Assembly: GCA_024682255.1 (NCBI GenBank)
Contig: GCA_024682255.1_4716.1
Origin: a phage
DNA: 64,000 nucleotides
Reading direction: 5' to 3' (one strand)
This document shows positions 1,655 through 55,040 of this stretch, piece after piece. Numbering within the stretch: position 1 is the stretch's first letter; the number at the start of each line of letters is the position of its first letter. The notes beneath the pieces are model-generated. The model had not been told where the DNA came from. It made no database searches and saw nothing but the letters and a program-made list of their open reading frames with translations. The translations under genes and the position numbers were made by a program.

Positions 1655-2161
1655 CCTTTTCTTCGCCTCAGGTCGCTACGCTGAGACCGCCTGCGTGGAT
1701 ACGTACATCACAGGCTGCTTGCACTTTCATGCAAGAGGAGACTATATCAAACCGTCAGCTTCACCTTCTCGATCGTATCGAGAATGCGGTGCTGAAGTAT
1801 TCTTCAGCAGCACCTGCTACGGTAACCTACACTTCGAAGACGCTTGTCCTCTACAGGGTGGTAAATCCCTTAGTCGTTGAACCTGCGTTGTTTCACATTC
1901 TTGTTTGCAAGAATGCCGTATTGCTACGCAACAACCAGGCTGCTGATTGCCCATTATCACGCACCTTAGCACCGCTTACGCGGCTTTTCTTTCAGCCTAA
2001 GCCTCCGTGGGAGGTAATGTCTGATTAAATCAGACATCGCCAGGAGGTAGTGCATCTCAACTGTTGTTTCCGCCTTTCGGCACCTCATGGGTTGTTGAGC
2101 TTTAGGGGTTCCCAGCAATTCGTAGGTTTTTCAAGCACTCCCTTTCGGGAATACCGGACCA
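1655..2161 (-). ncRNA. group I intron ribozyme core (P3-P9 region)
   Basis: On the minus strand: P-like GAATTGCTGGGAACCCC (~2105-2121), Q-like AATCAGCAGCC (~1938-1948), R-like GGTTCAACGACTAAGGG (~1866-1883), S-like GATATAGTCTCC (~1737-1748). P4 pairing UGCUG/CAGCA and P7 pairing GACUA/UAGUC are present; GAAA tetraloop hairpins (~2070-2084, ~2139-2151). No long ORF. Confidence 0.7.
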
Positions 2162-3646
2162 TTACCCTTTAGCTAATTTATTTAAGTATCTGAAATCCCA
2201 CTTATCTTTGCGTCTATTTTCGCACTTAATAGCTTGGTTCTTTATTCTCCAAGCCACCTTTGTTTTAGGTAATTGGCTGTAATTGGCCGCTGACGCAGTA
2301 CCTAAAACAACGGTTACGGTACCATCGGGTTTAGTAATCTCTACAGCGCGATAATGCTTACGTAACACATTACGCCAATATTCACGGCGTTCTGGCTCAG
2401 CATACTCAAGCATATAACCGTTGGTATCGACCAGACCGTAACACTCGTTTAAACGAGAGGTAGCGGCCGGTCTACTAATACCGATTGCTTTAGCCGCGTC
2501 AACCACGGTTTTATACGGGGTTTCATTACCGTCTCTATCTACAACCACAATAAAATCTGGACGCGAATCGAGCAGCTGCTGTCTTCGTTCAAGGGCTTGT
2601 TGATGAAGCACCTTGTTAACATGTTCGAACCCGTAACCTTCTGGACCGCGCCACCCTGGATTGTTATTCGCTCGATAAAGTACCGTCGCTGATTTCACTC
2701 CAGTCTGACGTGACGCCTCGTTTGCACTATGAACAACCGTGGTAGAGCCGTCAGGGTGATATATCCGTATCTGGTTCATTATACCGGAACCAACAAAATT
2801 ACCATCAGCTGATTTAATATCCGGCCATGGTTGAGGATTATCCTTGAATTTAACCACCCAACGACTGTTAAACAATTTGACTTTCCGGGCATGTTTACCC
2901 ATTGTCGTATCCGTAACACCAGCTACAACAGAGGCTTGCGTGATACTCAGGTACTCAGTAACGGTATCGTCCCATGTATCCCAGAGCAGAACCGGTTTAT
3001 TGTCGTCGCGTAAACCGTGTTCGATAGCATGCAGGACATTACGACTTCTGGTTGCCCATTCAAGGTTGTCAAGAGAATAGTTCCACTTATCGGCATCAAG
3101 ATGGTTAACGTCCATCCTATCGACATCGGCTGGATACTCTCTCCACGCCAGCATTAGACAACGGTGTAATACCTTGCTACCGGCCTTCTGGCGACAATCA
3201 TGTTTCAAGCAGACAGTAACGTAACGGTTCGTTACGAAACACGGGCGACAAATGCTCCCGTCTTTTCTGTCCCTGATATCACCTACTTCGTTTATTACAT
3301 ATCTCGTCAGTCCTGGAATAACGCGATAGCCAGGATACTTAGCGATTTCATAAGCGGGCTCGAACCGATAGGATAAATTATCAACATCCCAGTTAGATTC
3401 GTCACCATCAACAAACATCGCTTTGACGTATTTCTGTGTTTCAATATCAACCAGGATGTTTTTGTGTGCGATACAAATCAATGCTGGGATATTGAATTCG
3501 CGACCGGCTAAGATAACCGTGTCGCCATCTCTCGGTACCTCGACGTGGGTATCGCGATACCGCAAGTTTCCATAGCCGTCTATTTCAATCCAGCTTAGAA
3601 ACGGAATAGATATAAATTCTTTTTCAGATACTCGCCATTTAAACAT
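2162..3646 (-). CDS. HNH homing endonuclease (intron-encoded)
   Basis: Track ORF, 494 aa; HNH_3-type motif VNHLDADKWNYSLDNLEWATRSRNVLHAIEHG; ATG with AGGGG SD; lies between the 5' splice site and the ribozyme core. Confidence 0.85.
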   Translation of the reverse strand: MFKWRVSEKEFISIPFLSWIEIDGYGNLRYRDTHVEVPRDGDTVILAGREFNIPALICIAHKNILVDIETQKYVKAMFVDGDESNWDVDNLSYRFEPAYEIAKYPGYRVIPGLTRYVINEVGDIRDRKDGSICRPCFVTNRYVTVCLKHDCRQKAGSKVLHRCLMLAWREYPADVDRMDVNHLDADKWNYSLDNLEWATRSRNVLHAIEHGLRDDNKPVLLWDTWDDTVTEYLSITQASVVAGVTDTTMGKHARKVKLFNSRWVVKFKDNPQPWPDIKSADGNFVGSGIMNQIRIYHPDGSTTVVHSANEASRQTGVKSATVLYRANNNPGWRGPEGYGFEHVNKVLHQQALERRQQLLDSRPDFIVVVDRDGNETPYKTVVDAAKAIGISRPAATSRLNECYGLVDTNGYMLEYAEPERREYWRNVLRKHYRAVEITKPDGTVTVVLGTASAANYSQLPKTKVAWRIKNQAIKCENRRKDKWDFRYLNKLAKG

Positions 3647-3731
3647 ATAAACCCCTGTATAACCTTACTGTCACACTAAGAGGTTTATCTGTAAATTCTT
3701 ACAGAATGGCGTAATTTTACTAAAAGGGCCG

Positions 3732-16580: not shown

Positions 16581-16635
16581 AAGGTAACGTTTACGTCACC
16601 TCCATGACAGTCATCATGAAGGTAATATAGTCCTG
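16581..16635. promoter_or_regulatory. promoter-like motif copy 1: AAGGTAACGTTTACG ... CATCATGAAGGTAATATAGTCC
   Basis: 19-mer CATCATGAAGGTAATATAG is identical to the copy at ~42285; lies in the divergent region between 16016..16531 (-) and 16664..17293 (+). Confidence 0.45.
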
Positions 16636-27179: not shown

Positions 27180-27211
27180 CCCTCCTCCTTCCCTGTTGGG
27201 TTGGAGGAGGG
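27180..27211. repeat. GGAGG-family hairpin repeat (reverse orientation copy): CCCTCCTCC-TT-CCC-TGTT-GGG-TT-GGAGGAGGG
   Basis: Reverse complement is identical to the core of the copies at ~43048 and ~55009. Confidence 0.6.
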
Positions 27212-27225
27212 TTATGCCGTCAAGC

Positions 27226-29734: not shown

Positions 29735-29757
29735 ACTTAAGTAATATAGCCGTGAAA
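29735..29757. promoter_or_regulatory. promoter-like motif copy 2: CTTAAGTAATATAGCCGTGAAA
   Basis: Shares GTAATATAGCCGTGAAA with the copy at ~42294; 31 nt from the ATG of 29053..29709 (-) and ~110 nt from the ATG of 29860..30636 (+). Confidence 0.4.
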
Positions 29758-38924: not shown

Positions 38925-39287
38925 TTAAAGCGTTCTGAAGAGTTCTGTAGCGTTCTCGTCACGTAAACAGGCTTCGTTCAACAATTCAGCTAACAGCTTC
39001 GACCGAACTTCAACAAATGTCCTGAGGCGATGCTCCCATTCTAAACGGATAGTGTAAGTATTATCCAGGTTTTTGTAGTCAACGACAGATACCGAGCAGC
39101 GGGGTTCACGTTTGTTCACAGCATCCCAAACATCACGGATAACCGTCACGCCTTTCTTGGTACACGTAAACGTTAAAATAAAGCGATTATTCGCTGCTTC
39201 TTCACGGACATGACTAAATTCACTTCGTAACGATGAGACTTTGATAAGTCGGTCAATAGCTAACGATAAACCGATACGTTGTTGCAT
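38925..39287 (-). CDS. hypothetical protein
   Basis: Track ORF, 120 aa. Confidence 0.5.
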   Translation of the reverse strand: MQQRIGLSLAIDRLIKVSSLRSEFSHVREEAANNRFILTFTCTKKGVTVIRDVWDAVNKREPRCSVSVVDYKNLDNTYTIRLEWEHRLRTFVEVRSKLLAELLNEACLRDENATELFRTL

Positions 39288-40771: not shown

Positions 40772-41047
40772 TTATACGGCTTTTCTGTGCGCGTAGAACG
40801 CCTTCGTTCCGTTGTTGATTGCTTCAACCACATCCCGGGTTAACACAACGGCGTTATCGCTTCGAGACGACGGTGCGTAATACCCTTCACCGTTCTCGGT
40901 AATCAGGCGATAACGGACTAAGCCTATGCTCGGTTCAACACGTAGCACCTTTTCAAGTTTGTATTTGATGATCTTCGTCAGGCTGACTGTGTCTGACGCG
41001 TAGATTGCTTTATAAACCTTGTTCTTTGTTGTCGGTTTCATCAACAT
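40772..41047 (-). CDS. hypothetical protein
   Basis: Track ORF, 91 aa. Confidence 0.45.
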   Translation of the reverse strand: MLMKPTTKNKVYKAIYASDTVSLTKIIKYKLEKVLRVEPSIGLVRYRLITENGEGYYAPSSRSDNAVVLTRDVVEAINNGTKAFYAHRKAV

Positions 41048-41087
41048 GATTTCTGTTGTATTTTCCTTTTCGCTTGTTGGTGTTGGA

Positions 41088-41441
41088 TTAAGGTTTAGGT
41101 TCCGTTTTGTGTTGTGCGAGTAGTATGTTGATCTGCTCCCGTTGTTCTTTTAAGCATGCGGGAAGCTGGTCTTCCCGTACCGTTCCGATTTCCAACGTGA
41201 TGTACCAGCGTTGTTCGGAAGCCTGCCATTGAAAACTGCTCTGTAAACGAAGGATGCTAGGATCACGTACCTTGTTTGCGCTGTAGCGGTTGAACCAAAC
41301 CAGGTAAGCGGCTTTTCCTTCCTCGTCGGCAACGTAACGCTGCACGCTGTTCTTGCCTTTGTTCTCGTATCCTGTTGTACGTATCATGCGAACGTTTCTC
41401 CTGCAGCGTGTTGCGGATGGCGTAGCATGGTAGCATCCCAT
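41088..41441 (-). CDS. hypothetical protein
   Basis: Track ORF, 117 aa; N-terminus overlaps upstream gene, start uncertain. Confidence 0.4.
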   Translation of the reverse strand: MGCYHATPSATRCRRNVRMIRTTGYENKGKNSVQRYVADEEGKAAYLVWFNRYSANKVRDPSILRLQSSFQWQASEQRWYITLEIGTVREDQLPACLKEQREQINILLAQHKTEPKP

Positions 41442-42166
41442 TGTACGAACCGGCTCCGGCTTACCCGCATCATGATGGATTCATCGTCAAGCCCTGGTTG
41501 CACAACCGGTAACCAACGTTCGTTAAGCACCTTCGCTTCAACGCGTTTCTTGCGTGGGTTGTAACGCACCCCGCTAACCCAAGCGAATCCAAGTGGATGC
41601 ACAACCCGTGGATAATACATGCGAAGCAATTGATGCATCCGATCCGTTGCCTCCAAGCTCGCATCCGCCATGTAAGGTTTCACCATGGTAAGCTTTTTGG
41701 TATAATACGTACCAACGGTATGGTTACGCCAACTTGGCAAGGCATGATCCCCTTCTCTCAGTTTGCTATCCGGGTTCATCGGCCAGACCTGCTGTTTACC
41801 GGCCAGCATCGCGTACTGCCGATCAACGCAACGAACCTGATCGGCGAACAATGGATCCAGGATATCATCCACCGCACCCTTATTGCGATAACCGTGATGT
41901 ACCACCAACCTGCTTGCGCTCATCCGTTGCGGATGCTGGCTCTTATGCGCATACAGTCCTCCGTCACCGCGAGCGTCGTAAAGATAACCGCATGCGCCAC
42001 GCCATATCACCTTGCCTACGGTTCTCTCGTCTTCAAGCAGCATCGTCGGTCCATCAAGCAAATTGGTGAACCATTGCACCTTCACGCATTCCGCTTGAAC
42101 GCACTCAGGTAATGCCTGATACTCTTTTTGGGTGTATAAGGTATCAAAAATGATTTCATCGTTCAT
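41384..42166 (-). CDS. hypothetical protein
   Basis: Track ORF, 260 aa; ATG with GAGGAA SD. Confidence 0.6.
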   Translation of the reverse strand: MNDEIIFDTLYTQKEYQALPECVQAECVKVQWFTNLLDGPTMLLEDERTVGKVIWRGACGYLYDARGDGGLYAHKSQHPQRMSASRLVVHHGYRNKGAVDDILDPLFADQVRCVDRQYAMLAGKQQVWPMNPDSKLREGDHALPSWRNHTVGTYYTKKLTMVKPYMADASLEATDRMHQLLRMYYPRVVHPLGFAWVSGVRYNPRKKRVEAKVLNERWLPVVQPGLDDESIMMRVSRSRFVQWDATMLRHPQHAAGETFA

Positions 42167-43047
42167 CTAAAAAGTTCCTCTGTTTCACGTTAATTAAACA
42201 ACGTATTGATTTCTGGTAACGATAACAATCCTAGTGATGTTATCAAAAAGGTAACGCTTACGCGTCGCGTTCATGATGCCATGCATCATGAAGGTAATAT
42301 AGCCGTGAAAGGATTTGTGTTACAGAAAGGGTTTTGTTGTTTTTAAGAAGAGATGGATTTAGAAGAGGTGTTGCAAGCAAGGAAGGTAAACGAGGATAGG
42401 TATTTTGATTTAAGTAAGTAAGATGTTATCTGTATTCGTTAAAAATGTATTGTCTAAGTTATCTTGTTTATCTTAGGTTATGTCTTATTGTTTAATCGTT
42501 TAATATTTTTATCTAAGTAGGTTTAACTCTATCTTGTTTGTATATTTAAATTAATTTAAAGTAGATCAATAAGCTTATCTTCAAAACAATGGATAACATG
42601 TGTTTACTACCTTAACGGTAACACATGTCATCTGTGCATTCACTCCGTTATCACTTCGTTACATGCTTATCAACGTTTTGTCTTCACAAAACGTTCAACT
42701 CAAAAAACCATTTGTGATACTCTTCTTCACGTTGTTCATCAGAGTATCTCGTCTATACTCATTGCATTCGTATACGACATAACCGTTATACGCTAACGCT
42801 ACGCTTATAGCTTGATAACTCTAAGGATAAAAACATAAACTCGCTTCGCTCGTTTAGTTTTTCTTTTTCTTAGAGTTATCCTGTTGCTCGTCTCTAAAGG
42901 ACTTCGCTCCTCCCCCGTCCCCCGAAGGGGCCGAGGTCGTGGAAATTTTACTTTCCAAATACATTTACAACATCTGTAAACTTTTACTCCAGGTACTTAA
43001 TCTTATCATTAGAAATTATAAAAGAGAAGAATAAACACAAACATAAA
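42167..43047. other. AT-rich gene-free region (~0.9 kb) with TTATCTT-type repeats
   Basis: No ORF with SD. Repeated TTATCTT/TTATCTA units (~42459-42540); promoter-like motif copy 3 at ~42248-42310; hairpin AACGTTTTG-tcttca-CAAAACGTT (~42672-42695); CCCC-UUCG-GGGG hairpin on minus strand (~42915-42930). Confidence 0.5.
42248..42310. promoter_or_regulatory. promoter-like motif copy 3: AAGGTAACGCTTACG ... CATCATGAAGGTAATATAGCCGTGAAA
   Basis: Same bipartite motif as copy 1; ~127 nt from the ATG of 41384..42166 (-). Confidence 0.45.
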
Positions 43048-43082
43048 CCTTCCTCCAACCCAACAGGGAAGGAGGAAGGGGG
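43048..43082 (-). terminator. GGAGG-family hairpin (CCTTCCTCC-AA-CCC-AACA-GGG-AA-GGAGGAAGG) downstream of 43094..43993
   Basis: Near-identical to the copy at ~55009, including the AACATAA flank; followed on the minus strand by T-rich sequence. Confidence 0.6.
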
Positions 43083-43093
43083 ATTAATTAAAA

Positions 43094-43993
43094 TTATACG
43101 GGAGCGTTAACGTTATAACCGAATACTGCTTTACCGTAGGTGTGAGTACCGTCAGCTAACGACAGCACCAGCACATTGCCGTACGTAGCGTTAACGCCCT
43201 TGTCGGTAGACTCGAGGGTATCACCGTTATAGACAAAGGTAGCTGTTTGCAGATTGGCTTTCAGTTCATTGATGATCTCATCACTTACACCGGTCTGCTC
43301 TTTGATCAGGGTGGTCAGGTTACCTGCCAGGCTTTCATCGATCTTGGTTTCGTTACTGGTAATCGCCTGTAAACCTACGCCGTAGATGCTGAAGTCTAAC
43401 GGATAGGTTAACAGACGCGCTGACGTTTTGGTACCATCGCCTTCATCAACGTAGGTTAAGTTACCCAGGTTGGTAACCTTGATGATGTTAGCCAGATCCA
43501 GCGTGGTGTTATAAACTTTAACTTGAACCGAGCCATACCACGCCAACGAATCTTCTTTGGCTTCCAGGGTGATCGTCTGGATACCATGCTGGTCGAAGGT
43601 AACCGGCGTAGCTAACGTTTCGGCTTTGATGTCTTTCGCTTTATCCAGGAACTTCTCACCGGAAGGCGTGATCATACCGTAGCGTTGAGCTACAAGGTCA
43701 ACCACGTCACCAATAGTGGTGTTCGCATTAACGTTAACACGTACAGCGATTTTCTGGAACCACTTAGCCAGATCCAGACGATGGTAGGTAACATCGCGTT
43801 CATTGAAGTAAGGGGTACCTTCACCTGGGCTAAGCGTTAAAGTTGCTTCTGGAGCAGAAGGATTCTTTTCTTTAAGAACGTATTTAAGGTCGGTGTATTT
43901 GAAGCTGGCACCAGTGTCGGCGTTGAGTTTGTTAATCTCATCAACGATAAGTTGCCAAGGTGTTTTTAAAGTAAGCGATACTTGAGCTGTCAT
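43094..43993 (-). CDS. paralog-family protein (YxRLDL ... LAWYGSV motif family), function unknown
   Basis: Track ORF, 299 aa; shares TYHRLDLAKWF and LAWYGSVQV motifs with 44135..44677, 55050..55955, 56872..57723 and 57734..58681. Confidence 0.6.
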   Translation of the reverse strand: MTAQVSLTLKTPWQLIVDEINKLNADTGASFKYTDLKYVLKEKNPSAPEATLTLSPGEGTPYFNERDVTYHRLDLAKWFQKIAVRVNVNANTTIGDVVDLVAQRYGMITPSGEKFLDKAKDIKAETLATPVTFDQHGIQTITLEAKEDSLAWYGSVQVKVYNTTLDLANIIKVTNLGNLTYVDEGDGTKTSARLLTYPLDFSIYGVGLQAITSNETKIDESLAGNLTTLIKEQTGVSDEIINELKANLQTATFVYNGDTLESTDKGVNATYGNVLVLSLADGTHTYGKAVFGYNVNAPV

Positions 43994-44134
43994 TTTCTAC
44001 CTCTATGGTTGTTACATCACTCTCAAAAGATGTAAGTGTTTACAGAAATTAATATATTTTATATTAGTGTGAATAGTATGGAGAACGACTCCGAATCTCC
44101 TTTTCGACCATCAAAAATCAGAGGACACATAATC

Positions 44135-44677
44135 ATGGACTTAAACTTTAACAAAGCAGCGAAATCCCTTCTGCTTGATCTTATCAACACCAAAGCAACC
44201 CGCACACTGTCTGAAGAAGAACTGCAGTTCGGTACTCCGGCGACATCTTCCGAACATGGAAAGAACACCGTTATTCAGCTGGACGCTGCGCCTGAAGCAG
44301 CTAACCTGCAGGGTAGTCAGCAGTTCTACTACGATCGTCTGGCTCTGTCCGAAGTTTTCGCTGAAGTAACCGGCGATGTTACTTTCGAACTGCCGCACGG
44401 CACTGACAGCATTAAGGCTTCTGAACTGGTAAGCAAGCTGGTCACCAAATTCGGCCTGGCTTCCCTGACCGGTGAAATCAAAGAAGAAACCTTCCAGCTG
44501 TCTGCAGGTACTGTTGGTCGGGTAACCCTGACTGCGATCGAGGGTGGCCTGGTATATACCGGCACTCTGCAGGTTGCACTGACCTACGCAGCTGCACCGA
44601 AAGACCAACTGGCAACCGTTCTGGCGAATAACGTAGCTGATGGCTTCGTGAAACCGACCGTTAGCGCTGTTGGCTAA
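44135..44677 (+). CDS. paralog-family protein, function unknown
   Basis: Track ORF 44036..44677 (GTG); ATG 44135 with GAGGA SD preferred; motifs FYYDRLALSEVF and LVYTGTLQV. Confidence 0.55.
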   Translation: MDLNFNKAAKSLLLDLINTKATRTLSEEELQFGTPATSSEHGKNTVIQLDAAPEAANLQGSQQFYYDRLALSEVFAEVTGDVTFELPHGTDSIKASELVSKLVTKFGLASLTGEIKEETFQLSAGTVGRVTLTAIEGGLVYTGTLQVALTYAAAPKDQLATVLANNVADGFVKPTVSAVG

Positions 44678-45733: not shown

Positions 45734-47782
45734 TTACATACCCTTGGTTCCTTTCACGTGATGTGCAATTTCTTCAACCATTGCACGCAGAGCACGAAGC
45801 TGTTGATCATGTTCGTACCAACCGCCTAACAGAACCCCACTATACACCATGGTGTCAAGACTTAACAGCCCTTTATCTGATACGTTGATCATTTCAGGGA
45901 ACTGTTCTTGAACACGCTGTGCAATAACACCGATCTTCTCGACATCAGGATCGTAGTTGTGACGGAAACGGGCAAGCCCGCTGCGCGCCATTTCACGTAA
46001 ACGTTCACTGAGAGATTCCGGATGGTCTTTCAGATAACGGATGTCGTGTTTACTACGCTCATCTGAACGGATGTATGCGTTAGGAACATCGATGTTGCTG
46101 TTGAAGTACAGCGCACTACCACCACCTGCAGAGTTCCCCCAATAGAAGCGTGTGATCTCACCGCCACCATTTTCCGTGATGATAACATGTTTACCTAAAC
46201 GTGTACCACCATTACCATCAACGAAGACCAGTTTGTTTCCGCTGTAAGAACCCCAGAACAAACGCGTATCGATGATGTGCGTTGCGGCGAGGCGGGCGTT
46301 ACGTGGTGTAGAATACACGGTGTTAACATCTTGCTGCGCATGCGCATCGGAAGCGATACCATAGTTCTGTACGTTACCCAACCCAACCTGCGCTTTCGTA
46401 ACAGCGTGAGGGTTGTCTCGACGGTTAGCGTGAGCGTTAACCAGATCACCCGCTAATTTCTGAATTGCCCAGTTGGTAGACTGTGGCGTCATGTAACGGT
46501 TAGTTGCAGAACCACCTTGCGCTTCAGCTTGGTTAGCGGTTGGGTAGTTCTCAACACTTCCTAACCCTACTTGTGCTTTAGACACTTGGTGCGGGTTATT
46601 CTTGTCGGCTTTATGCGCATTAAGCGGAACTAACGCAAAGGTCTCAATGGACGCTTTGGTTGTGTTCGGTGCCATTAATCGGTTAGCTGCAACACCGGCA
46701 CGCGCTTCTTCTTCAGAAGCCATCGGATAGTCTTGCACATTACCTAATCCCACCTGCGCCTTGGTCACTCTGTGTGGGTTGTTATAATCGGCTTTGTGCG
46801 CATTAAGTGGAATCAATGCGAATTGTTCAATCGCGGCAACGGTACGTAGCGGTGTCATGAAACGGTTGTTCGCTGTTCCGGCTTTCGCCTCATCATCCGA
46901 AGCGGTCGGGAAGTTATCAACGTTCCCAAGGTTAACCTGTGCTTTGGTGACGCTGTGTGGGTTATCCCGGCGGTTAGCGTGAGCATCGACTAGATCGCCC
47001 GCCAGTTTAGCAATTGCCCATCCAACCGTTTGTGCGGTCATGTATCGGTCAGGTGCGGTACCGGCTTCTGCCTCCGCCTTGTTTGCAGTAGGATAGTTCT
47101 GTACGTTACCTAGTCCGACTTGGGCTTTTGTTACTTCGTGCGGGTTATCGGTACGGTTAGCGTGTGCGTAATGCAGATCGGTCAGATCTTTATCCGCTGC
47201 TTGCATGTCTTTGCGTAGCTGATCGATTGCCGCCCAGAGACGGTTATCGGATGCAGCATCACCGATAAGTATTGCGGCTTTCAGTGAATAGATCGCTAAG
47301 CAAAGATGTTCGGTACCGTAAATAGCACTAACGTGGTGGATGTGTGGTTCAGGCGGATAAAGTTCCGGTTTGTTCTTGATGTCGTCCCAGTTGATCGGAC
47401 GATCGTCAAGTTTGAGTTCTTCGATAGCCTGATACAACGCGTCAATAAGACTTACGTAAACACCACCGATGATACGATAGTCGTTAACTAATGTCCCCTC
47501 GATATCATCGTTGATGATGGCGATGGCTGCACAGATTTCTTTACCTGCGTAAAGCGTCGCATCCTGATACAAGAAAATGGGTTTATAATCCACGCCTCGT
47601 ACCAGTGTCTTACCGGTAAGCTTTTCAGTGATGACCAGACTTTCGGTGAAGAACGGTCCGCCATCAAGGGCGTAACATTTATTCTCGGTTCGTGGAACGG
47701 TATGCTCTTCACCAACGATGTGGTTGCTGGCGAGTGTACCGGTCCAGTCCTCGGGGTACTTCAGGGTAATTGGTGTCGACAT
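45734..47782 (-). CDS. tail fibre protein with five NPHxVTKAQVGLGNV repeats and a C-terminal S74-type intramolecular chaperone domain
   Basis: Track ORF, 682 aa; five ~45-aa repeats of the Phage_fiber_2 type; C-terminus RSDERSKHDIRYL ... IGVIAQRVQEQFPEMI matches the endosialidase-chaperone autocleavage region (SDxRLK ... GFIAQEVEEVLPE). Confidence 0.8.
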   Translation of the reverse strand: MSTPITLKYPEDWTGTLASNHIVGEEHTVPRTENKCYALDGGPFFTESLVITEKLTGKTLVRGVDYKPIFLYQDATLYAGKEICAAIAIINDDIEGTLVNDYRIIGGVYVSLIDALYQAIEELKLDDRPINWDDIKNKPELYPPEPHIHHVSAIYGTEHLCLAIYSLKAAILIGDAASDNRLWAAIDQLRKDMQAADKDLTDLHYAHANRTDNPHEVTKAQVGLGNVQNYPTANKAEAEAGTAPDRYMTAQTVGWAIAKLAGDLVDAHANRRDNPHSVTKAQVNLGNVDNFPTASDDEAKAGTANNRFMTPLRTVAAIEQFALIPLNAHKADYNNPHRVTKAQVGLGNVQDYPMASEEEARAGVAANRLMAPNTTKASIETFALVPLNAHKADKNNPHQVSKAQVGLGSVENYPTANQAEAQGGSATNRYMTPQSTNWAIQKLAGDLVNAHANRRDNPHAVTKAQVGLGNVQNYGIASDAHAQQDVNTVYSTPRNARLAATHIIDTRLFWGSYSGNKLVFVDGNGGTRLGKHVIITENGGGEITRFYWGNSAGGGSALYFNSNIDVPNAYIRSDERSKHDIRYLKDHPESLSERLREMARSGLARFRHNYDPDVEKIGVIAQRVQEQFPEMINVSDKGLLSLDTMVYSGVLLGGWYEHDQQLRALRAMVEEIAHHVKGTKGM
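45737..46115 (-). other. S74-like intramolecular chaperone (autoproteolytic) domain of tail fibre
   Basis: C-terminal ~125 aa beginning at the SDERSK motif. Confidence 0.6.
46330..47200 (-). repeat. in-frame tandem coding repeats (~135 nt unit) encoding NPHxVTKAQVGLGNV modules
   Basis: Recurring DNA segments (e.g. ..gttacccaacccaacctgcgcttt.. on the plus strand) and five protein repeats. Confidence 0.7.
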
Positions 47783-53663: not shown

Positions 53664-53717
53664 TGTGTTAACAGCGGTAAAATATTACTGTAACTATAAA
53701 ATAAGGGGGCCTCTCCC

Positions 53718-54998: not shown

Positions 54999-55008
54999 CC
55001 AAACATAA

Positions 55009-55040
55009 CCCTCCTCCAACCCAACAGGGAAGGAGGAGGG
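55009..55040. terminator. GGAGG-family hairpin CCCTCCTCC-AA-CCC-AACA-GGG-AA-GGAGGAGGG between convergent genes
   Basis: Perfect 9-bp outer and 3-bp inner stems; near-identical to the copies at ~43048 and ~27180 (reverse complement). Confidence 0.6.

Follow-up and report, generated by a model that had tools for sequence, protein, structure and literature searches.

The window, a stretch of 64,000 nucleotides of contig GCA_024682255.1_4716.1, is Goslar-like chimallivirus DNA, that is, it represents a nucleus-forming jumbo phage of E. coli, and is 90% identical to Goslar. It contains one long gene-free segment, which a first-pass annotation had listed as a candidate origin, regulatory hub or non-coding RNA locus. 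Which of these functions does the gap serve? The comparison with related genomes makes a composite control region fairly probable. Its elements would be read on the minus strand and include a separate non-coding RNA unit and an early promoter. The best reading is a putative new phage non-coding RNA gene that adjoins a promoter control zone.

The absence of a plausible gene was confirmed. The extent of the gap had been set slightly short, at 42167-43047; its true end is 43093, which gives 927 nt. In the order in which they are read on the minus strand, the gap and its borders consist of the following elements:

43094-43993, minus: homolog of gp022, whose stop borders the gap

43048-43079, minus: hairpin CCTTCCTCCTTCCCTGTTGGGTTGGAGGAAGG with a U-rich tail, the intrinsic terminator of the gp022 homolog (inverted repeat I10)

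42989-43047, minus: U-rich terminator tail and semi-conserved spacer, identified by the comparison of clades A and B

42974-42987, minus: palindromic promoter-like box GTAAAAGTTTACAG of the class GTAA-N4-TTAC-WG, identified by motif statistics

42702-42988, minus: hairpin-rich non-coding block of about 287 nt, a candidate non-coding RNA gene, identified by conservation and folding

42302-42701, no strand assigned: fast-evolving AT-rich zone (GC 0.31) with AGATAA words and the inverted repeats I9 and I17

42293-42310, minus: putative phiKZ-type early promoter TTTCACGGC-TATATTAC-C, with TATATTAC exact at 42301-42294

42167-42292, minus: 5' UTR of the gp021 homolog (inverted repeat I16)

41384-42166, minus: homolog of gp021, whose start borders the gap

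The AT-richness noted earlier is real: the GC content is 0.366 over 42001-43000, compared to about 0.47 in the whole window. The equivalent gap of Goslar (NC_048170, 14972-15825) is the largest annotated intergenic gap of that genome and contains its lowest-GC 300-nt windows (0.28 versus 0.465 for the 237-kb genome). The Goslar record lists no annotation within this gap and annotates no RNAs other than two group I introns. When the entire gap was compared with the phage collection by means of blastn, Goslar was the sole match. ARAGORN found no tRNA or tmRNA gene in the window, and a group I intron at 1718-2180 was the only Rfam match in the window at the gathering score. Scanning 41000-44500 against Rfam gave no match inside the gap, and thus none for the block, even at E <= 10; the two matches obtained (each E = 1.1) lie within flanking genes. 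The relatives L008-L010 likewise gave no Rfam match, and a sigma-70 promoter scan remained at chance level. The gap is flanked by a hypervariable and a conserved gene: The gp021 protein of the window is 44-62% identical to those of three close relatives and matches no Pfam family, and gp022, a DUF7941 virion protein, shares 75-83% identity with its clade-B homologs. With the gp022 terminator, a putative early promoter and a second promoter-like box all located in the gap, the term regulatory hub is supported.

Two ORFs are candidates for small protein genes hidden in the gap, which contains ORFs of 30-60 aa:

42600-42782, plus: ORF of 60 aa with a GTG start

42854-42964, minus: ORF of 36 aa

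The GTG-start ORF had been judged not to be a plausible gene. In agreement with this, it is frameshifted in Goslar by indels of 10 nt and 16 nt and has no match to a protein family. The AUG of the 36-aa ORF falls within an 11-mer that the distant relative L009 has conserved, which favours a gene. However, the ORF lacks a Shine-Dalgarno sequence and is not conserved in L009, where the frame starting from the same AUG encodes an unrelated peptide of 19 aa; moreover, all substitutions found in clade B and in L034 are non-synonymous. The small ORFs of the gap have no matches in PHROGs or Pfam, and no conserved ORF was found in the block. A protein gene in the gap is therefore most improbable.

The conservation of the block differs markedly from that of its surroundings. 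It is about 100% identical in four close genomes. Since other patches of 99-100% identity are present among these closest genomes, which are mosaics, most of the weight rests on clade B and L009. In clade B, the block is about 96% identical, compared to 65-88% nucleotide identity for the surrounding non-coding segments; spacer, AT-rich zone and UTR diverge, whereas the block stays. For example, the spacer at 42989-43047 differs between clades A and B by many substitutions and a 5-nt indel, unlike the adjoining block. At the opposite end, near-perfect conservation stops exactly at the terminal T-run of the block, the length of which varies from 5 to 9. A covariance model (R1) identified one copy in the window (363.8 bits) and detected L009 weakly (E = 0.12). 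The block alone had no match in complete E. coli genomes or in plasmids. A search for antisense targets in the Goslar genome returned, apart from the promoter box, 11-12-mers at chance level only.

L009, whose gp022 homolog is only 55% identical at the protein level, retains the box, the adjacent 11-mer and, with one compensatory exchange of a base pair, hairpin H3. On the same strand, a strong GC-rich hairpin with a U-rich tail, i.e. a canonical terminator, follows the box at a distance of about 250 nt. The AT-rich repeat zone is missing in L009, which argues that the block is a separable unit. The syntenic site of L008 contains neither the block nor the repeat zone. IMG/VR scans and pattern scans of metagenomes and genomes found no further L009-like genomes; the pattern scans detected Goslar-like copies plus random matches only. 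A protein of 149 aa neighbouring the L009 locus had no homologs.

Folding of the block yielded an MFE of -85 kcal/mol (z = -5.1), and its consensus fold comprises eight hairpins with 84 predicted pairs. The hairpins that are informative for the comparison are:

42913-42936, minus: H3, CCUCG-G-CCCC-UUCG-GGGG-A-CGGGG, with pair switches

42809-42888, minus: H5, a composite hairpin with outer stem GAUAACUCUAAG/CUUAGAGUUAUC and an inner stem capped GC-GAA-GC (inverted repeat I1)

42751-42778, minus: H7, with the covarying apex AU-GCA-AU / AC-GCA-GU / GC-GCA-GU / GC-GAA-GC

42702-42748, minus: H8, GAUACUCU...AGAGUAUC followed by ACAAAUGG and a U-run, the presumed 3' end at the conservation boundary

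The variation in the block is concentrated in loops or preserves pairing. Most pairs are invariant, and three of the 84 change on both sides (helices 4 and 11). Five further stem transitions are one-sided, and each of them produces a G.U pair if the minus strand is read but an A.C mismatch if the plus strand is read. In one helix (columns 181-210), breaks are the only changes. The CCCC-UUCG-GGGG hairpin that had been noticed on the minus strand is indeed present at 42919-42930 and conserved in relatives. In H3, the pairs 54:75 and 55:74 alternate among C-G, U.G and U-A. In L034, its loop is flipped to CGAA and a G/A mismatch is replaced by U-A, such that mismatch and wobble pair are repaired; in L009, the hairpin is retained, with one C-G pair turned into G-C and one U.G into U-A. 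The both-sided changes of H7 affect the pairs 222:228 (AU 6, GC 4, GU 1) and 223:227 (CG 7, UA 4), and its pair 217:233 is altered from U-A to U.G in L034. In H5, none of the 27 pairs varies among 11 distinct sequences, which neither supports nor opposes pairing. The stem of H8 has 8 bp and is AU-rich. Its U6 begins 8-9 nt past the stem, which is atypical for an intrinsic terminator, and a simple terminator scan did not call H8 with its U-run. Stable-loop hairpins and tolerance of G.T would equally fit a single-stranded DNA element. Taken together, the near-invariant structured block, some compensatory and wobble-preserving changes that agree with the minus strand only, the promoter-like box, the U-run and the lack of a conserved ORF lend comparative support to the proposal of a non-coding RNA locus.

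Upstream of the block, the gp022 gene is closed by a GC-rich stem with UUUAUGUUUGUGUUUAUU directly after it, as expected for an intrinsic terminator. In clade B, this stem carries a compensatory change from CCTTCC/GGAAGG to CCTCC/GGAGG. The hairpin belongs to a repeated family that is also placed after other genes; near-identical copies are found at 27183-27213 and 55007-55037, and Goslar contains eight.

The box class has five matches at four sites in the window compared to 0.24 expected, and none of the shuffles reached five. All of these sites are intergenic, and two are located 28-90 nt upstream of plus-strand genes. In Goslar, nine matches were found (0.9 expected), all nine intergenic, among them sites upstream of the genes for the major head protein, chmA, gp023 and gp030. 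The enrichment is seen only for the palindrome formulation; the halves GTAAATGTATT and AAAGTTTACAG, searched with up to two mismatches, occur in the window at chance level. In the middle promoter of phiKZ, which lies about 22 nt before the start site, TACT comes after a run rich in A (PMC8244752). The box GTAAAAGTTTAC(T/A)G resembles this promoter in being an A-run followed by TTTAC(T/A), and in Goslar it precedes structural genes and chmA. Unlike the phiKZ promoter, it is a 5+5 palindrome, and for two to three of the Goslar copies, no gene follows on the matched strand. Furthermore, the box is located only 27-28 nt from the start codon of the gp030 homolog, and the distance to the start site must therefore differ from that of phiKZ. 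Judged by resemblance, the box may be a middle promoter of the phiKZ type; its palindromic form and the copies lacking a downstream gene indicate that it may instead be the binding site of a regulator.

Downstream of the block, the AT-rich zone contains the following elements:

42426-42431, 42459-42464, 42468-42473, 42509-42514 and 42575-42580, minus: five exact copies of AGATAA (TTATCT on the plus strand)

42529-42534, minus: the variant AGATAG; the variant AGACAA also occurs in the zone

42592-42632: inverted repeat

42672-42695: hairpin, present in some relatives and absent in others

The reported cluster of TTATCTT-type units withstood a statistical assessment: there are five exact TTATCT words on one strand, dinucleotide shuffles give 0.30, and none of 2000 reaches five. 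For seven relatives with 4-7 AGATAA words each, about 0.3 were expected, and again none of 2000 shuffles matched the observed count. Across 15 relatives, the length of the zone varies between 261 and 437 nt, with 2-7 AGATAA words on the minus-equivalent strand and 0-1 on the other. The zone changes mainly through indels and is partly deleted in relatives. The number of repeats is kept across clades, their positions are not, and AGATAA ranks first among the hexamers of both clades despite surroundings that do not align. In Goslar, the sole AGATAA cluster of the genome sits here, together with the GC minimum. By these sequence statistics, the TTATCT repeats are real, selected and unique in the genome. 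Their interpretation as DnaA-box-like half sites fails: TTATNCACA does not occur inside the gap at up to one mismatch, and DnaA boxes are at chance level window-wide.

The promoter-like motif GTAATATA described at 42294-42301 exists and recurs, but its functional reading would be TATATTAC on the minus strand. The window copies at 16622 and 29741 are likewise read on the minus strand, from 16629 and 29748; they are located upstream of minus-strand genes, one of them 31 nt from an ATG. Goslar contains ten perfect TATATTAC copies, all on the minus strand, and one of these is found 73-80 nt upstream of the chmA start. At the gap locus, Goslar and L008 have the variant TACATTAC instead. The octamer TATATTAC is the early promoter consensus of phiKZ (PMC7058600), and the extended consensus of 201phi2-1 is WTTTRARR-B-TATATTAC (PMC7598289). 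The early promoters used by the virion RNA polymerases of these phages are AT-rich and have their centre about 10 nt before the start site. The motif in the gap has the identical core octamer, its upstream TTTCACGGC resembles the extended consensus, and the motif precedes small hypothetical genes and chmA; host and genus are different. These similarities support the assignment of 42301-42294 as a putative phiKZ-type early promoter driving the gp021 gene block.

The elements of the gap can be combined in the following model. The late gene gp022 would end at its strong intrinsic terminator. About 60 nt past it, the box GTAAAAGTTTACAG would start a separate, ORF-less transcription unit. Its predicted product is an RNA of about 265-287 nt with about seven or eight hairpins, one of them UUCG-capped; its 3' end would be formed by a hairpin with a U-run behind it. 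The conservation of almost all bases and the lack of any extended complementarity to the phage genome suggest a stable RNA acting in trans, folded and probably protein-bound, rather than via long antisense pairing. In the downstream AT-rich zone, which undergoes rapid indel change, several same-strand AAGATAA(C) words are always kept; these are putative binding sites for a DNA-binding protein of the phage. From the early promoter at the end of the zone, the injected virion RNA polymerase would transcribe the small-gene block from gp021 to gp014. Intergenic and 5'-UTR small RNAs have been mapped in 201phi2-1 and phiKZ by ONT-cappable-seq (PMC11512511), and the published strand-specific RNA-seq time course of Goslar, covering 5-60 min after infection, gives counts for annotated genes only (bioRxiv 10.1101/2023.09.20.558163). 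Like the candidate block, the small RNAs of 201phi2-1 and phiKZ are short ORF-less units in chimallivirus genomes, in which the start is soon followed by termination; unlike it, they were filtered to <250 bp and stem from Pseudomonas phages (PMC11512511). They were found by expression, whereas the block of about 265-287 nt was found by conservation.

Could the gap be a replication origin instead? The AAGATAA(C) words would then be iterons for a phage initiator, the lowest-GC stretch an unwinding element, and the block may be transcribed from the box promoter to serve as a primer or form an R-loop, as with ColE1 RNA II and T4 oriF/oriG, or act as a single-strand priming signal. Plasmid iterons, the octamer repeats of P4 ori and the T7 primary origin are further comparators. 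The largest non-coding gap, the lowest GC content and the sole AGATAA cluster of the 237-kb Goslar genome coincide here, and, as in iteron-based and transcription-primed origins, short repeats of one orientation (five AGATAA plus variants) are located in the most AT-rich DNA beside a putative promoter and a predicted structured transcript. Their conservation in number rather than position, the direction of the promoter-like box, which points toward the AT-rich zone, and the strand-asymmetric G.U (or G.T) tolerance, which suits single-stranded DNA as well as RNA, would also fit. In addition, the phage has its own genes for helicase, polymerases, RNase H and ligase. Nevertheless, we regard an origin as rather unlikely, albeit as a rival to be taken seriously. 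In contrast to such origins, the gap has neither DnaA boxes nor a recognisable adjoining initiator gene, and the GC skew, calculated for the window and for the complete Goslar genome, tracks the direction of the genes without an origin-like switch near 15 kb. In L009, the box and the 5' portion of the block occur without the repeat zone, and L008 has neither block nor zone at the syntenic site; repeat zone and block can therefore be separated, and relatives can do without them at this locus. GCGAAGC mini-hairpins are a lead toward single-stranded DNA origins; this word was rejected as an origin signal, as it occurs at chance frequency across the genome.

Alternatively, the block might be the long structured leader of a middle-phase transcript that runs from the box through the AT-rich zone into gp021, with H8 and its U-run as attenuator. 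The chmA gene shows the same tandem order: the 16-mer box variant AGTAAAAGTTTACAGA, common only to the gap and the chmA upstream region, precedes the early promoter motif there by about 115 nt, and chmA of phiKZ has both early and middle start sites (PMC8244752). The weakness of H8 as a terminator agrees with read-through. However, with about 800 nt, such a leader would be exceptionally long, given that 5' UTRs of phiKZ typically have 31-40 nt (PMC8244752). In L009, a strong terminator and small ORFs on the opposite strand separate the element from the downstream early promoter, and the intervening AT-rich zone varies from 261 to 437 nt, which together make a leader quite improbable. We consider it very improbable that the gap is mostly spacer without function, located where gene modules were joined by recombination, with block identity due to recent horizontal exchange and repeats due to slippage. 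The mosaic genomes with their other near-identical patches, the position between hypervariable gp021 and a conserved gene, and the indel-driven change of the AT-rich zone are compatible with such a junction, but not the divergence of both immediate flanks of a block that keeps its pairing in clade B, the top rank of AGATAA in both clades, or the persistence of box and H3 in L009.

The candidate non-coding RNA gene with its promoter control zone is of interest because Goslar serves as the model of nucleus-forming jumbo phages in E. coli. The locus offers a candidate structured RNA of about 287 nt, which is conserved in every Goslar-like genome examined, a promoter-like box common to the genes of chmA and the major head protein, and a repeat cluster that is unique in the genome and located in its most AT-rich DNA. 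Should the repeats prove to be an origin or the binding platform of a regulator, this would give access to the replication and regulation biology of these phages. We found no report of a replication origin for this group in the literature. [quoted passage not shown]

The leader between the putative early promoter and gp021 contains the following elements:

42270-42292, minus: hairpin

42253-42266, minus: terminator-like hairpin

42175-42180, minus: Shine-Dalgarno sequence GAGGAA of the gp021 homolog, read directly from the sequence

Compared to Goslar, this 5' UTR carries an insertion of 39 nt, which is shared with L003.

A 1-kb query around the gene-free stretch at 42167-43093 (the gap) matched Escherichia phage vB_EcoM_Goslar at 90% identity. 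Goslar is a chimallivirus, i.e. a nucleus-forming jumbo phage of E. coli, and was also the sole match of the whole gap in the phage collection. The Goslar record has no feature annotated at the equivalent gap, which is the largest annotated intergenic gap of that genome and contains its lowest-GC 300-nt windows (0.28 vs a genome mean of 0.465). The AT-richness noted in the first-pass annotation is borne out by the composition of the window, and repeat counts confirmed TTATCT repeats on one strand. The recurring promoter-like motif it had described has further copies in the window, and its UUCG hairpin is present both in the gap sequence and in the consensus fold. It had proposed an origin, a regulatory hub or a non-coding RNA (ncRNA) locus. 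The region is most likely a composite control region consisting of a terminator, a box-driven candidate ncRNA gene (the block), a repeat-bearing AT zone and an early promoter; the origin is kept as the main rival, without skew or initiator support. The features are as follows.

41384..42166, minus strand, gp021 homolog, hypothetical protein without Pfam family match
42167-43093, gap between gp021 homolog start and gp022 homolog stop
42175-42180, Shine-Dalgarno sequence in the 5' UTR of the gp021 homolog
42253-42266, terminator-like hairpin in the same 5' UTR
42270-42292, UTR hairpin in the same 5' UTR
43048-43079, terminator hairpin in minus-strand reading, then a U-rich tail, ends gp022
43094..43993, minus strand, gp022 homolog, DUF7941 virion protein
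3689-3704, 44032-44045 and 53677-53690, further sites of the palindromic box

Judged from its sequence, the gap is not coding. The plus-strand 60-aa GTG ORF is broken in Goslar by indels of 10 nt and 16 nt, and the minus-strand 36-aa ORF has no Shine-Dalgarno sequence; in the distant relative L009, the same conserved AUG starts an unrelated 19-aa peptide. The small ORFs of the gap gave no matches in PHROGs and Pfam.

Relatives were gathered by means of the gp022 protein (72 homologs, 50-96% identity), their contigs and a DNA pattern scan. The minus strand from ~43079 to 42700 is essentially identical in four close genomes, whose gp021 proteins are just 44-62% identical to that of the window. 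These genomes are mosaics with further patches of 99-100% identity elsewhere, and the more divergent clade B, with gp022 proteins of 75-83% identity, is therefore the sharper test of conservation. In clade B, the block (42988-42702, minus strand) is still ~96% identical to the window, although the AT zone, the UTR and the 60 nt past the terminator have diverged strongly. The block was collected in 14 distinct sequence variants. The gp021 homolog (41384-42166, minus strand) is hypervariable, as its protein identity is 44-62% vs genomes otherwise ~91-99% identical in DNA, and is perhaps an early gene that is diversifying. Its coding region contains a weak match of the ToxI antitoxin type (41705-41735, minus strand; 21.8 bits where the gathering score is 50; E = 1.1), most likely due to chance. 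A second strongly divergent patch (~46400-47200; DNA identity 65-74% to relatives) lies inside a large virion protein gene (45734..47782); it may reflect host-range variation, because the Goslar homolog has a Peptidase_S74 domain.

The block folds with -85 kcal/mol (z = -5.1), and RNAalifold yielded a consensus of eight hairpins, with variation clustered in loops. Both partners changed in three pairs: two at the apex of hairpin H7 (alignment columns 222:228 and 223:227) and one, 54:75, in the UUCG hairpin. Each of the five one-sided stem transitions leads to a G.U pair on the minus strand and would be an A.C mismatch on the plus strand; were strand irrelevant, this would be a ~1-in-32 outcome, so it is no more than suggestive. 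The helix at columns 181-210 shows breaks only, and the majority of the pairs are invariant. In the relative L034 the UUCG loop is flipped to CGAA, and U-A pairs replace a G/A mismatch as well as a U.G pair. Near-perfect conservation ends at a T-run of length 5-9 downstream of hairpin H8, which is AU-rich and lies 8-9 nt ahead of the U-run and would therefore be an atypical terminator. A covariance model found one copy of the block in the window; searches of Rfam, E. coli complete genomes and plasmids gave zero matches. Elsewhere in the window, Rfam identified a group I catalytic intron (RF00028, 57.9 bits; 1718-2180, minus strand), the counterpart of the Goslar Intron_gpI feature beside an RNA polymerase beta-subunit gene.

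Through indels, the length of the AT zone (42701-42302) ranges between 261 and 437 nt in the relatives. The word AGATAA (TTATCT on the plus strand) occurs two to seven times on the minus strand of every relative examined and at most once on the other. Dinucleotide shuffles, run for seven relatives with 4-7 copies, gave ~0.3 copies, and 0/2000 reached the observed count. In each clade AGATAA ranks first among hexamers, although the surrounding sequence cannot be aligned; no second cluster was found across the Goslar genome. The words are absent from the remaining early promoters of the window and are therefore not a general promoter element. Nor are they DnaA boxes; they are read as putative binding sites for a phage protein.

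L009, whose gp022 homolog is 55% identical to that of the window, retains the box (GTAAGAGTTTACAG), the adjoining 11-mer and the UUCG-capped hairpin H3, where, read directly from the sequence, one C-G pair is swapped to G-C and one U.G pair has become U-A. A strong GC-rich terminator in the same orientation follows after ~250 nt. The remainder of the element differs in sequence (weak covariance model match, E = 0.12), and ordinary-GC DNA without the repeat cluster lies between it and the early promoter. Where Goslar-like phages have the AT-rich repeat zone, L009 carries four tiny hydrophobic ORFs on the opposite strand (2290-2720; 25-32 aa), each like a single membrane-spanning segment. In L008 (51% identical), the terminator is directly followed by the early promoter.

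The structured block can therefore stand as a unit of its own, and this favours an RNA gene rather than an integrated origin. An origin, in which the repeats would serve as iterons, the block providing a primer RNA or a single-strand signal, is the main rival and would fit the genome-unique composition of the gap; however, GC skew gives no signal at the site, no initiator gene adjoins it, and the parts are separable in L009 and L008. Thirdly, the region might provide a long, attenuated leader for middle-phase expression of gp021. As a candidate ncRNA, the block would act in trans as a folded and probably protein-bound molecule, because constraint extends to nearly all of its bases and no antisense target of extended length was found in the phage genome. 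Published studies report mapped small RNAs for 201phi2-1 and phiKZ (PMC11512511; PMC8244752). In our literature search, neither a non-coding RNA of Goslar nor a replication origin of a chimallivirus was found described; in published Goslar RNA-seq, reads were counted over annotated genes only (bioRxiv 10.1101/2023.09.20.558163).

In minus-strand reading, the repeated plus-strand motif GTAATATA is TATATTAC, the early-promoter core published for phiKZ (PMC7058600; PMC7598289). All three window copies are oriented toward minus-strand genes, one of them 31 nt from an ATG, and all ten perfect Goslar copies are on the minus strand, one being located 73-80 nt upstream of the start codon of chmA (nuclear shell). 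On the basis of this core and orientation, 42310-42293 was assigned as early promoter of the gp021-to-gp014 block and 42292-42167 as its 5' UTR. The other two window copies are at 16622-16629 and 29741-29748 (minus strand). The early promoter at 16629 and that of the gap have a downstream module CTTCATGATG...CGTAAACGTTACCTT in common, which at the gap is an insertion relative to Goslar.

The gp022 terminator stem has a compensatory change in clade B. It belongs to a hairpin family of ~31 nt (CCTCCTCCTTCCCT-loop-GGGTTGGAGGAGG, then TTATG) found in the window at 27183-27213, 43048-43079 and 55007-55037 and in eight copies in Goslar; near-identical copies lie 3' of other genes in both. Several Logan contigs (L011, L014, L019) stop 34-47 nt past gp022, probably due to assembly breaks at this repeat.

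The 5' edge of the block is the promoter-like box GTAAAAGTTTACAG. Its class, GTAA-N4-TTAC-WG, has five matches at four sites in the window (0.24 expected), all intergenic, two sites being 28-90 nt upstream of plus-strand genes. In Goslar, nine matches (0.9 expected) are all intergenic, though ~92% of the genome is coding; listed sites are 45757, 173098, 134255, 176758 and 188961. Boxes precede the genes of the major head protein (82 nt upstream), chmA (186 nt), gp023 and gp030, and the 16-mer form is common only to the gap and the chmA upstream region. In phiKZ, middle promoters are described as an A-rich run and then TACT, and chmA is transcribed from early as well as middle start sites (PMC8244752). 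We infer a resemblance of the box to the phiKZ middle promoter; the box is palindromic, and a few copies have no downstream gene. It may serve as the middle/late promoter of Goslar or as a site bound by a regulator. Convergent genes flank a second orphan box, GTAAAACTTTACTG (Goslar 188961-189135, plus strand; 38961-39135 in the genome piece L048). A strong plus-strand terminator hairpin follows after ~130 nt, and box and terminator could delimit another small non-coding transcript.
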